From the NCBI GenBank assembly GCA_963775955.1, contig CAVZKT010000002.1, positions 7,994 to 71,993 on the forward strand: a DNA stretch of 64,000 nucleotides. The letters are read 5' to 3'. A program made the position numbers and the translations under genes. Shown piece after piece: positions 57,598 to 59,709 of this stretch. The notes under the pieces were generated by a model. It did not search any database and was not told the origin of the DNA. It saw only the letters and a list, made by a program, of their open reading frames with translations. This stretch comes from Candidatus Moraniibacteriota bacterium. Its GTDB lineage: Bacteria > Patescibacteriota > Minisyncoccia > Moranbacterales > UBA2206. The number at the start of each line of letters is the position of its first letter. The first letter of the stretch is position 1.

Positions 57598-59709
57598 ATG
57601 ATTATATTATTTATTCTCAGCGGGGCAACTCTCGCCATCGTGTATGGAATAATCCTGGCAAAAATTGTTTTGCGCCATAGCGCCGGCAACGAAAAAATGC
57701 AGGAAATCGCGCGGGCGATCCAGGAAGGAGCCAAAGCTTATCTGAACCGGCAATATAAAACGGTGGCTATGGTAGCGGCGGTGCTATTTCATTATCATCG
57801 GTTTCGTTCCGGTTCTGGGCTGGACAACGGCCATCGCGTTTTTGCTGGGAGCTTTTCTTTCGGCGCTGACCGGCTATATCGGCATGAATGTTTCGGTGCG
57901 GGCCAATGTGCGCACGGCCGAAGCGGCGCGCGGCGGAATGCAGAAAGCGCTGACTGTGGCCTTCCAGGGCGGCAGCATCACCGGGCTTTTAGTGGTGGGA
58001 TTGGCGCTTTTGGGCACGGCCGGCTTTTATTTCATCACTAAGGATATTCACGCTTTGATCGGCTTGGGATTCGGCGGCAGTTTAATTTCCATTTTCGCGC
58101 GCCTGGGCGGAGGAATTTTTACCAAAGCGGCGGATGTGGGCGCGGATCTGGTCGGCAAAGTGGAAGCCGGCATTCCGGAAGACGATCCGCGCAATCCGGC
58201 GGTGATCGCCGATAATGTGGGCGATAATGTGGGCGACTGCGCCGGCATGGCGGCCGATCTTTTTGAAACATATGCGGTGACTTCCATCGCCACGATGATT
58301 TTGGGTTCGCTGCTTTTGGCCAATTTTCCCAACGCTATAATTTATCCTTTGGTTTTGGGCGCGATTTCTATTATCACTTCTATCATTGGAACTTTTTTTG
58401 TGAAACTTGGTTCCGGTAAAAACCCGAAGGATCACGGGGCGTGACCTACGGGGCAAGTATTATGGGCGCGCTGTATAAAGGCTTGATTGTGTCGGGAGTT
58501 TTGGCGGCCATCGCTTTTTATCCGGCAACTAAAATTTTAATGGAAGGCAATGGAAAATATTCCGTTATAAATATTTATTTAGCGTCGCTTATCGGGCTGG
58601 CCGTGACGGCGGCGATGGTGGTGATTACGGAATATTATACTTCCACGAAATACAAGCCGGTGAAAGATATTGCCAAAGCCTCGGAAACCGGACACGGAAC
58701 AAATATTATTGCCGGCCTGGCCGTTTCCATGAAATCAACGGCCTGGCCGGTCATCGTCATTGTGGCGGCGATTCTTGGCGCTTACAGTTTGGCCGGACTT
58801 TACGGCATGGCCATCGCGGCTATGGCCATGCTTTCCATGGCGGGAATAATCGTGACCATTGATGCTTACGGTCCGATTACGGATAACGCCGGCGGCATTG
58901 CCGAAATGGCGGAAATGGGCGAAGAGGTGCGCGAATATTACTGATCCGTTGGACGCGGTCGGCAATACGACCAAAGCCGTGACCAAGGGTTATGCCATTG
59001 CTTCGGCGGCGCTGGCCGCTTTGGTTTTATTCGCGCGATTTTACGCATAGCATTCCGGCGGCAGTCCAGTTTCTTATTAATGATCCGAAAGTTTTGGCCG
59101 GTTTATTCATCGGCGGACTGTTGCCTTATTATTTCGGCGCCTTGTCCATGCAAGCGGTGGGCAAAGCGGCGGGCGCGGTAGTGGAAGAAGTGCGCATCAG
59201 TTTAAAAACAAGCCGGGCATTATGGCCGGCACGGAAAAGCCGGATTATGGCAGAACAGTTGATATTGTAACCAAGGCGGCCATTAGCGAAATGATTGTGC
59301 CGGCTTTGATTCCGGTGCTGGCTCCGATTTTAGTCGGATTTATTCTGGGTGTGGAGGCTTTGGGCGGACTATTGGTTGGTGCGATTATTACCGGTATTTT
59401 CGTAGCGATTTCCATGACTACGCGGCGGCGGCGCCTGGGACAATGCCAAAAAATATATTGAAGACGGGCATTTCGGCGGCAAGGGATCGTACGCGCATAA
59501 AGCGGCGGTTACCGGCGACACAGTCGGCGATCCATATAAGGACACGGCCGGCCCGGCCATTAATCCGATGATAAAGATTTTAAATATCGTGGCGTTGTTA
59601 ATAGTGGGGTTACTGTATAATCCGACTTGCCCATCCGAGGCTTTAGCGAAGGAGGGTGATCAAAATTTTAAATATTGTCGCCTTACTAATCGTTGGCATG
59701 CTTATTTAA
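57598..59709 (+). CDS. hppA: membrane-bound proton/sodium-translocating pyrophosphatase (at least 6 frame changes)
   Basis: Fragments in all three frames: [109 protein letters not shown] region, [28 protein letters not shown]. Confidence 0.88.

Follow-up and report, generated by a model that had tools for sequence, protein, structure and literature searches.

A gene end encoded twice around a small palindrome: the hppA locus of a Moranbacterales bacterium and its counterparts in other assemblies

Results

Organization of the hppA locus

The window analyzed here is a 64,000-nt stretch (positions 7994-71993 of contig C2, CAVZKT010000002.1) of the genome of a Candidatus Moraniibacteriota bacterium (GCA_963775955.1, label G000), which comprises 818 kb in five contigs. 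It contains hppA, encoding a membrane pyrophosphatase, and the last 18 codons of this gene occur twice. The repeat extends from a Met codon through the stop in both the upstream copy (copy A) and the downstream copy (copy B), and a GC-rich imperfect palindrome lies between them (Table 1).

Table 1. Features of the hppA locus; positions are those of the window.
Feature	Position	Strand	Remarks
hppA, membrane pyrophosphatase (Pfam H_PPase)	57598-59620	+	Changing reading frames as assembled; PF03030 matches in five pieces
Copy A	59568-59620	+	Putative working gene end; its stop, TAA at 59618-59620, is out of frame by one base
Left stub of the putative displaced copy	59619-59625	+	AATCCGA = Asn, Pro, first base of Met; repeats the codons ahead of copy A; overlaps the TAA of copy A
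GC-rich imperfect palindrome, 31 nt	59626-59656	+	Last G is the first base of the GTG of copy B
Copy B	59656-59709	+	Putative displaced gene end; (V) + 16 residues, then TAA; +1 frame relative to copy A
Second GC-rich insert inside hppA, 35 nt	58423-58457	-	Reverse strand begins like the hairpins of other cassettes

The original prediction, made from the letters of the window, held that the C-terminal segment of hppA is encoded twice with synonymous differences only, and our analysis confirmed this: 59571-59609 and 59659-59697 translate to an identical 13-residue peptide, with 10 of 39 bases differing and no replacement. The peptide survived ten random changes in 0 of 200,000 trials, and chance is excluded as the source of the silent-only pattern. 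The repeat is longer than had been flagged, starting one codon earlier with ATG at 59568 and GTG at 59656; copy A reads ATG ATA AAG ... GGG TTA CTG TA TAA, and copy B reads GTG ATC AAA ... GGC ATG CTT ATT TAA. The copies start 88 nt apart, so that copy B lies in the +1 frame relative to copy A, and copy B ends in GMLI followed by a stop at 59707-59709, both as predicted. The spacer is indeed GC-rich, but its predicted length of 49 nt did not stand, since the element proper measures 31 nt. From the stop of copy A to the first base of copy B there are 38 nt, with no open reading frame (ORF) inside. A tblastn comparison of the last 17 residues of relatives with copy B gave 82-94% match.

Reading on past copy A yields a 34-aa tail. 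This tail, which had been described as unrelated, is present in the assembled sequence and is explained by one base missing before the TAA of copy A. At the most similar locus found elsewhere, L045, the end of copy A reads CTG GTA TAA where this genome has CTG TA TAA, and the copies lie 89 nt apart there compared with 88 nt here. The missing base is probably an assembly error.

State of the gene and of the assembly

When the proteins of four relatives were compared with hppA by tblastn, the same-genus protein was 94-96% identical in three frame segments, 85% identical at the N-terminus, and 68% identical for the composite segment 58934-59422. The alignment with the same-genus gene at the DNA level contains 1-nt indels at 57786, 58932, 59034, 59195, and 59421. 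It also shows the insert of 35 nt at 58423 and a gap of 4 columns (59616) at the point where the two genes end differently. In total, about seven frame breaks interrupt hppA, and the single-base breaks mostly fall in CGCG-like contexts or base runs. They are probably assembly errors rather than decay, as judged from the sequence, and a decaying pseudogene is unlikely, given the 94-96% match of three frame segments with the same-genus protein and the single-base nature of the breaks.

Elsewhere in the window, frame breaks split essential genes as well: gyrA (19511-21338) is broken in an A/T run, and a UvrD-like gene (8451-9778) is also split. These splits and the CGCG-context breaks of hppA suggest systematic indel errors in the assembly. 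The glmS gene (621 aa) of this genome is intact, as is a macB-like gene of 405 aa. Contigs from two read runs (shares 0.09 and 0.05) were short pieces of other organisms, left 59605-59738 uncovered, and have no bearing on the junction.

The same arrangement in other assemblies

We scanned other sequences with a degenerate pattern for two hppA ends lying 50-80 nt apart, requiring intact first codons in both copies. The scan matched 6 of 185,579 species genomes and 12 metagenome contigs; L049 was dropped as the same sequence as L038, leaving 17 distinct loci, which come from several studies and from contigs with MEGAHIT- and SPAdes-style names. All 17 have the same order, which we refer to as a cassette: a gene end with its own stop, a stub, a hairpin, TGATHAAR..., and a second gene end with a stop. 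At every locus the stub directly precedes the hairpin and duplicates, over 5-13 nt, the codons ahead of the Met; it usually reads ..AATCCGA. At most loci it has CCG for Pro, while the Pro codons of the live gene vary. The hairpin, whose status at these other loci was read from the sequence as complementarity, is GC-rich and ~30-45 nt long, with a typical start CTTGCCCCGT, a typical end ACGGGG, and a variable middle; many copies contain CGTAG. Within the NPMIKI motif, the junction invariably splits the Met codon as A|TG.

Copy A ends with its own stop in 17 of the 17 loci, and the spacing between copies A and B ranges from 88 to 103 nt and covers all three frames. With this spacing, read-through or ribosome hopping into copy B is unlikely.

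The nearest cassette, L045, is 85.7% identical to that of this genome over 168 nt, and its copy B encodes the same peptide with 10 of 16 codons identical. No second copy was found in the 120 nt after the hppA stop in the same-genus genome or in 16 other relatives, and the exact 32-nt junction had no match in the species genomes.

Among the three explanations that the original prediction had offered was a chimera assembled from two strains. Errors are indeed present in the assembly, as the roughly seven frame breaks of hppA and the split gyrA and UvrD-like gene indicate, and under this rival the stretch would be of low quality and would join sequence from two strains or species. However, the same junction recurs in 17 other distinct assemblies, L045 is similar across the whole cassette, the intact glmS and macB-like genes described below show the same layout, and copies A and B share no long exact word by which an assembler could have joined them. 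The recurrence of the junction, together with L045, makes a strain chimera very unlikely in this genome, and we give such an artefact hardly any credence. Another of the explanations, a small element inserted with a duplication of the gene end, agrees with the repeated palindrome between the copies and with the cassettes of the other assemblies. The remaining one, a joint formed by recombination with a divergent allele, could account for where the differently spelled copy came from but leaves the shared element and the fixed junction unexplained.

The palindromic element and its family

The 16-nt core of the spacer occurs six times in the genome at two or fewer mismatches, compared with ~0.4 occurrences expected by chance from a rough 16-mer count. 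The core copies align over ~31 nt as an imperfect palindrome whose outer bases covary, with C...G in some copies and T...A in others. The element is thus a member of a multi-copy palindromic family scattered through the genome. It is 92% identical to the L045 element, and the hppA copy of this genome has GAGG where the family has GTAG. A search of Rfam gave no match at E <= 1 within 59300-59900. A related 36-nt family has about ten copies in the genome, one of them inside glmS; a loose pattern for this family gave 25 matches, compared with 4-15 in shuffled sequences.

The second GC-rich insert inside hppA, which is related to the element, is missing from all four relatives compared (4/4). Given one more base in the preceding A-run, it would read in frame as 12 extra residues. 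A copy of the 31-nt element also lies within a phosphoesterase gene (~42160-42195; gene 42015-42566, minus strand), where it adds about 7 residues relative to 10 relatives. This insert (SSFAKATDGQ) is placed after a GHTH motif, and 2 of the 10 relatives have other small inserts at the same position.

Repeated gene ends of glmS and a macB-like gene

A scan of the whole genome for peptides repeated nearby found, outside ordinary repeat families, only hppA, glmS, and the macB-like gene. In the latter two, the last 14-17 codons are repeated behind a small GC-rich element. The glmS gene (contig C1, 108580-108720) ends in ..GFDVDKPRNLAKSVTVE and a stop. Next come a 13-nt stub that encodes K G Y D (V), a hairpin of 35 nt from the related family, and VDKPRNLAKSVTVE with its stop; the repeat lies 93 nt downstream, and 10 of 42 bases differ between the copies, all silently. 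The macB-like permease gene (contig C1, 20143-20305) ends in PARKAAAMSPIDALRYE, and 109 nt later PARRAANLSPIEALRYE and a stop follow. A looser copy of the motif lies between the two ends of this gene, and the differences are conservative.

Evolution of the two copies

We computed the ratio of nonsynonymous to synonymous differences (pN/pS) on the tail codons left free by the search pattern. Between copies A and B within a locus, pN/pS was 0.097 over the 17 loci, and the two copies stop at the same codon in 16 of 17. In 10 of 17 loci the tails encode the same residues although 4-9 bases differ, and for each of these P <= 0.003 if changes were random. Selection on the protein appears to have acted on both copies. 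A target-site duplication that later drifted, as in classical miniature inverted-repeat transposable elements or insertion sequences, was rejected: the repeats are ~54 nt long and differ at 10-17 positions with the peptide kept, as the pN/pS value and the 0/200,000 random trials also reflect. A diversity-generating retroelement does not fit the pattern of differences: the ten are of mixed kinds, all silent, and not confined to template adenines.

Within a locus, 87 of 253 codons were identical between the copies (0.344), compared with 0.356-0.371 between unrelated loci. We saw no extra selection for a difference in spelling between copies A and B (0.344 versus 0.356, permutation P = 0.34). Lineages with identical tails shared 79 of 186 codons, compared with 49 of 152 within a locus (p = 0.056). 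Lineages with the same peptide are therefore near synonymous saturation, and a related lineage would suffice as the donor of the different spelling.

These data bear on a rival explanation, in which the cassette is old and vertically inherited and both copies are kept because both are used. Copy B might become the working end by reversible excision of the segment from copy A through the hairpin, or copy A, stub, and hairpin might form a composite single-strand transposon aimed at TCCNA|TGAT, with the spare end as cargo. Great age would agree with synonymous sites that are as different between copies A and B as between unrelated loci, with the near-universal retention of the stop position, and with a stub that keeps CCG while the Pro codon of the live gene varies. 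It would also agree with the equal divergence of A from A and of B from B between loci (tail pN/pS, B-B 0.36 and A-A 0.28) and with the lineage-specific residues that copies A and B share at variable positions (pN 0.098 within a locus versus 0.24-0.30 between loci). However, the cassette is rare and patchy, occurring in 6 of 185,579 species genomes, and no second copy lies within the 120 nt after the stop in the same-genus genome or the 16 other relatives. Moreover, lineages with identical tails are themselves near saturation, so that related donors suffice; the variable frame of copy B relative to copy A puts copy B out of reach of read-through; the cassette has no linked enzyme; and the search pattern is biased to intact B copies. 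We consider this explanation unlikely, although it is the rival to which we give the most weight.

Which copy is native

Between loci, copies A and B diverge to the same extent (identity 0.76 for A and 0.77 for B in one comparison, 0.61 and 0.61 in another). In one clade of six, the junction and hairpin average 0.88, compared with 0.69-0.81 for the copies. The hairpin is better conserved than the coding DNA around it: between L041 and L050, it is 100% identical, the upstream sequence 87%, copy A 84%, and copy B 76%. A gradient of conservation away from the hairpin was not seen in these comparisons. One B copy, that of L052, is decayed. In L042 and L048, two near-identical strains, all differences fall within copy B and a short stretch just past its stop. 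They include five A-to-G changes and resemble the trace of a small imported patch or of local hypermutation.

Over 44 bases compared with the same-genus gene, copies A and B of this genome are tied at 8 differences each, and those of L045 have 10 (A) and 7 (B). Copy B shares its Met with the same-genus protein (GMLI versus GMLV). A native copy B and an imported copy A are weakly favored.

The opposite polarity is the basis of a further rival, in which the native gene, including copy A, was left untouched and the stub, hairpin, and copy B represent a foreign fragment, the hppA end of another lineage, placed behind the stop by homology-assisted illegitimate recombination, possibly together with a 1.7-kb AT-rich island. 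In favor of it, the gene runs directly into copy A, whose divergence between loci follows that of the upstream gene. In the comparison of this genome with L045, identity is higher for copy B (84%) and the hairpin (92%) than for copy A (78%) or tig (81.6%), and a two-gene island missing from both relatives follows copy B directly. On the other hand, L045 has the cassette without the island, which implies separate events, and in other pairs copy B is the less similar part (76% versus 84% for L041/L050; 92% versus 100% for L042/L048). A random joint would not hit the same nucleotide and hairpin family in 17 loci and in glmS, and copy B bears the tail residues of the host's own lineage. We therefore regard a foreign fragment as decidedly improbable.

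The island itself (59710-61385, 1,675 nt, ~32% GC) lies between the stop of copy B and tig, is missing from L045 and G001, and encodes a 271-aa protein without a Pfam match and a DUF3800 protein. Here tig starts MNMNNAS-IKKLPKS, compared with MIKKLPKS in relatives; thus, the right end of the island seems to supply a new start. Two unrelated runs, one with a soil label and one with a wastewater label, contain contigs that differ from this genome at 2 positions over 59752-60017 and at 1 over 59800-59964, respectively, and the hppA pieces of these runs are mostly <95% alike.

Discussion

We lean toward the conclusion that the hppA locus carries a real and recurrent miniature gene-end replacement cassette built around a tiny hairpin, and consider this somewhat probable. 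Under this interpretation, the upstream copy A would complete the protein, and copy B would be a spare that has been displaced and is interrupted by the 31-nt palindrome behind the first base of its Met codon. The element may have entered the conserved NPM|IKI site, which would otherwise have cut off the last membrane helix. An end with different spelling, derived from a related lineage and joined in front of the old one, would have kept the gene whole, perhaps through repair or recombination with a related allele. Such a route would resemble that of the mobile endonuclease ORFs of fungal mitochondria, which bring a new C-terminus.

Several observations weigh against this interpretation. The predicted fold of the hppA copy of the element (49-nt spacer) is no better than that of shuffled sequences (z = 0.58). 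Equal divergence of copies A and B fits long joint descent with a constrained copy B as well as it fits recent displacement. If copy A travelled with the hairpin, it should be nearly identical where the hairpin is, yet it is only 84% identical between L041 and L050. Decayed B copies would be missed or under-counted by the scan. A profile of the GIY-YIG proteins of this genome found no nuclease gene adjoining any of the 17 cassettes. Finally, the support for this particular assembly is confined to analogy and to the related locus L045.

As for the enzyme, the small GIY-YIG nucleases of this genome, several of them apparently nested in tRNA genes with part of the target duplicated, would be the best candidates for one acting in trans. 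Ten small GIY-YIG ORFs occur in its 818 kb. By reading of the flanks, at least five of the ten are either bracketed by the same tRNA-like stretch or immediately followed by a tRNA-like sequence, and two each have a hairpin-like copy directly upstream. In the window, a 98-codon GIY-YIG ORF (37461-37754) lies between the partial 5' part of a tRNA-Val and a complete tRNA-Val (37745-37821; ARAGORN, this ORF only). The arrangement of GIY-YIG ORFs and tRNA pieces would follow the same principle as the cassette, namely a mobile part with a spare piece of its target, with the nuclease encoded there. In the other assemblies, the nearest GIY-YIG matches lie ~6 kb from the cassette in three contigs, with a weak fourth at ~8 kb.

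A further possibility, which we advance tentatively and hold to be doubtful, is that the spare end, stub, and hairpin form a protein-free mobile cassette that homes to one nucleotide, in the Met codon of NPMIKI in hppA, carries a working replacement for what it cuts off, and is moved in trans by small GIY-YIG nucleases of the kind common in these genomes. Frequent gain and loss would then keep both copies under protein-level selection. If this is true, the cassette would be the smallest known element with a built-in gene prosthesis, and one that ultra-small bacteria share.

Tyrosine transposases associated with repetitive extragenic palindromes (REPs), known as RAYTs, were rejected as the mobilizing enzyme, because the palindromes on either side of both Y1_Tnp genes are of a different kind, particular to these genes. 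Y1-transposase-like genes (L065 1267-1996; L064; contigs C1 and C2) are flanked, and one is interrupted, by perfect palindromes of 11-13 nt. Together, these genes and palindromes resemble a small system of the REPtron type, with no relation to the hppA hairpin.

Our analysis indicates that an element of ~30 bases can occupy an important gene without breaking it, the function being kept through a second, differently spelled end. The presence of the same cassette at the same nucleotide in many uncultured Patescibacteria points to a targeted, repeated process with no element-encoded protein. Such cassettes also affect annotation, producing false frameshifts, false long tails, and small false ORFs, and they are natural markers of recombination between related lineages.

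Comparison with known systems

The e14 element and phage 21 of E. coli integrate into the 3' end of icd and bring a replacement end, leaving the old end downstream with mostly silent differences. The hppA cassette is similar to this system in that a gene end brought along by the incoming DNA preserves the integrity of the gene. However, elements of the e14/icd type measure kilobases, encode an integrase, and have the gene ends flanking the whole element, whereas the repeats in hppA start 88 nt apart with nothing encoded between them. Integrase-borne replacement of a gene end therefore fails on size and on the integrase.

GTAG REPs are mobilized by RAYT tyrosine transposases, and other intragenic palindromes such as the Rickettsia palindromic elements are also known, according to the available part of PMC3733652. 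The same part describes REPs as GC-rich palindromes of 20-40 bp with many copies, located mostly just downstream of genes; some lie in ORFs and are read in frame, and some supply a stop. The hppA element resembles REPs so described in its size, copy number, post-gene location, and occasional in-frame reading. Many hairpins of the cassettes also contain CGTAG, but the copy in this genome has GAGG in place of GTAG. A duplication of the gene end, which the hppA element has, is not described for REPs in that part of the source. In addition, a GTAG REP/RAYT pair is recognized by a transposase gene flanked by the same palindromes, and neither Y1_Tnp gene here has this arrangement.

The Ssn proteins are GIY-YIG single-strand nucleases paired with short hairpin repeats, as stated in the available text of PMC11893778. 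This genome is similar, as far as that text goes, in having both small GIY-YIG ORFs and hairpins, and the only association between them is the hairpin-like copy upstream of two of the ORFs. In the literature searched, we found no description of such a gene-end cassette in Patescibacteria.

The closest known phenomenon is the carboxy-terminal duplication of fungal mitochondria. According to the portion available of PMC3630166, mobile endonuclease ORFs produce such duplications, or "gene hybrids", in atp6 of Allomyces macrogynus and in atp6, atp9, cox2, and nad3 of Glomus sp.; the part available of PMC6279837 also gives carboxy-terminal duplication for atp6 and cob. The two ends of Glomus atp6 share 63.5% DNA identity and 91% protein identity, which was read as horizontal transfer from a related species (PMC3630166, same portion). 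The hppA cassette is similar to the fungal gene hybrids, as these accounts present them, in its order of an in-frame inserted end, a mobile part, and a putatively displaced native end, and in its mostly synonymous differences. In the fungal cases covered there, a LAGLIDADG or GIY-YIG ORF of 0.4-1 kb between the copies drives mobility, whereas the hppA cassette has 38 nt and no ORF; the fungal native end is 91-98% identical to close relatives. Over 44 bases compared with the same-genus gene, copies A and B are tied at 8 differences in this genome, and copy B is the nearer in L045 (7 versus 10). The fungal hybrids are mitochondrial, whereas the hppA cassette lies in a bacterium. The hppA cassette is not a member of the class as defined, because the ORF is missing. 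If homing by a nuclease acting in trans is true, the cassette would extend the fungal-mitochondrial phenomenon to bacteria, reduced to a hairpin.

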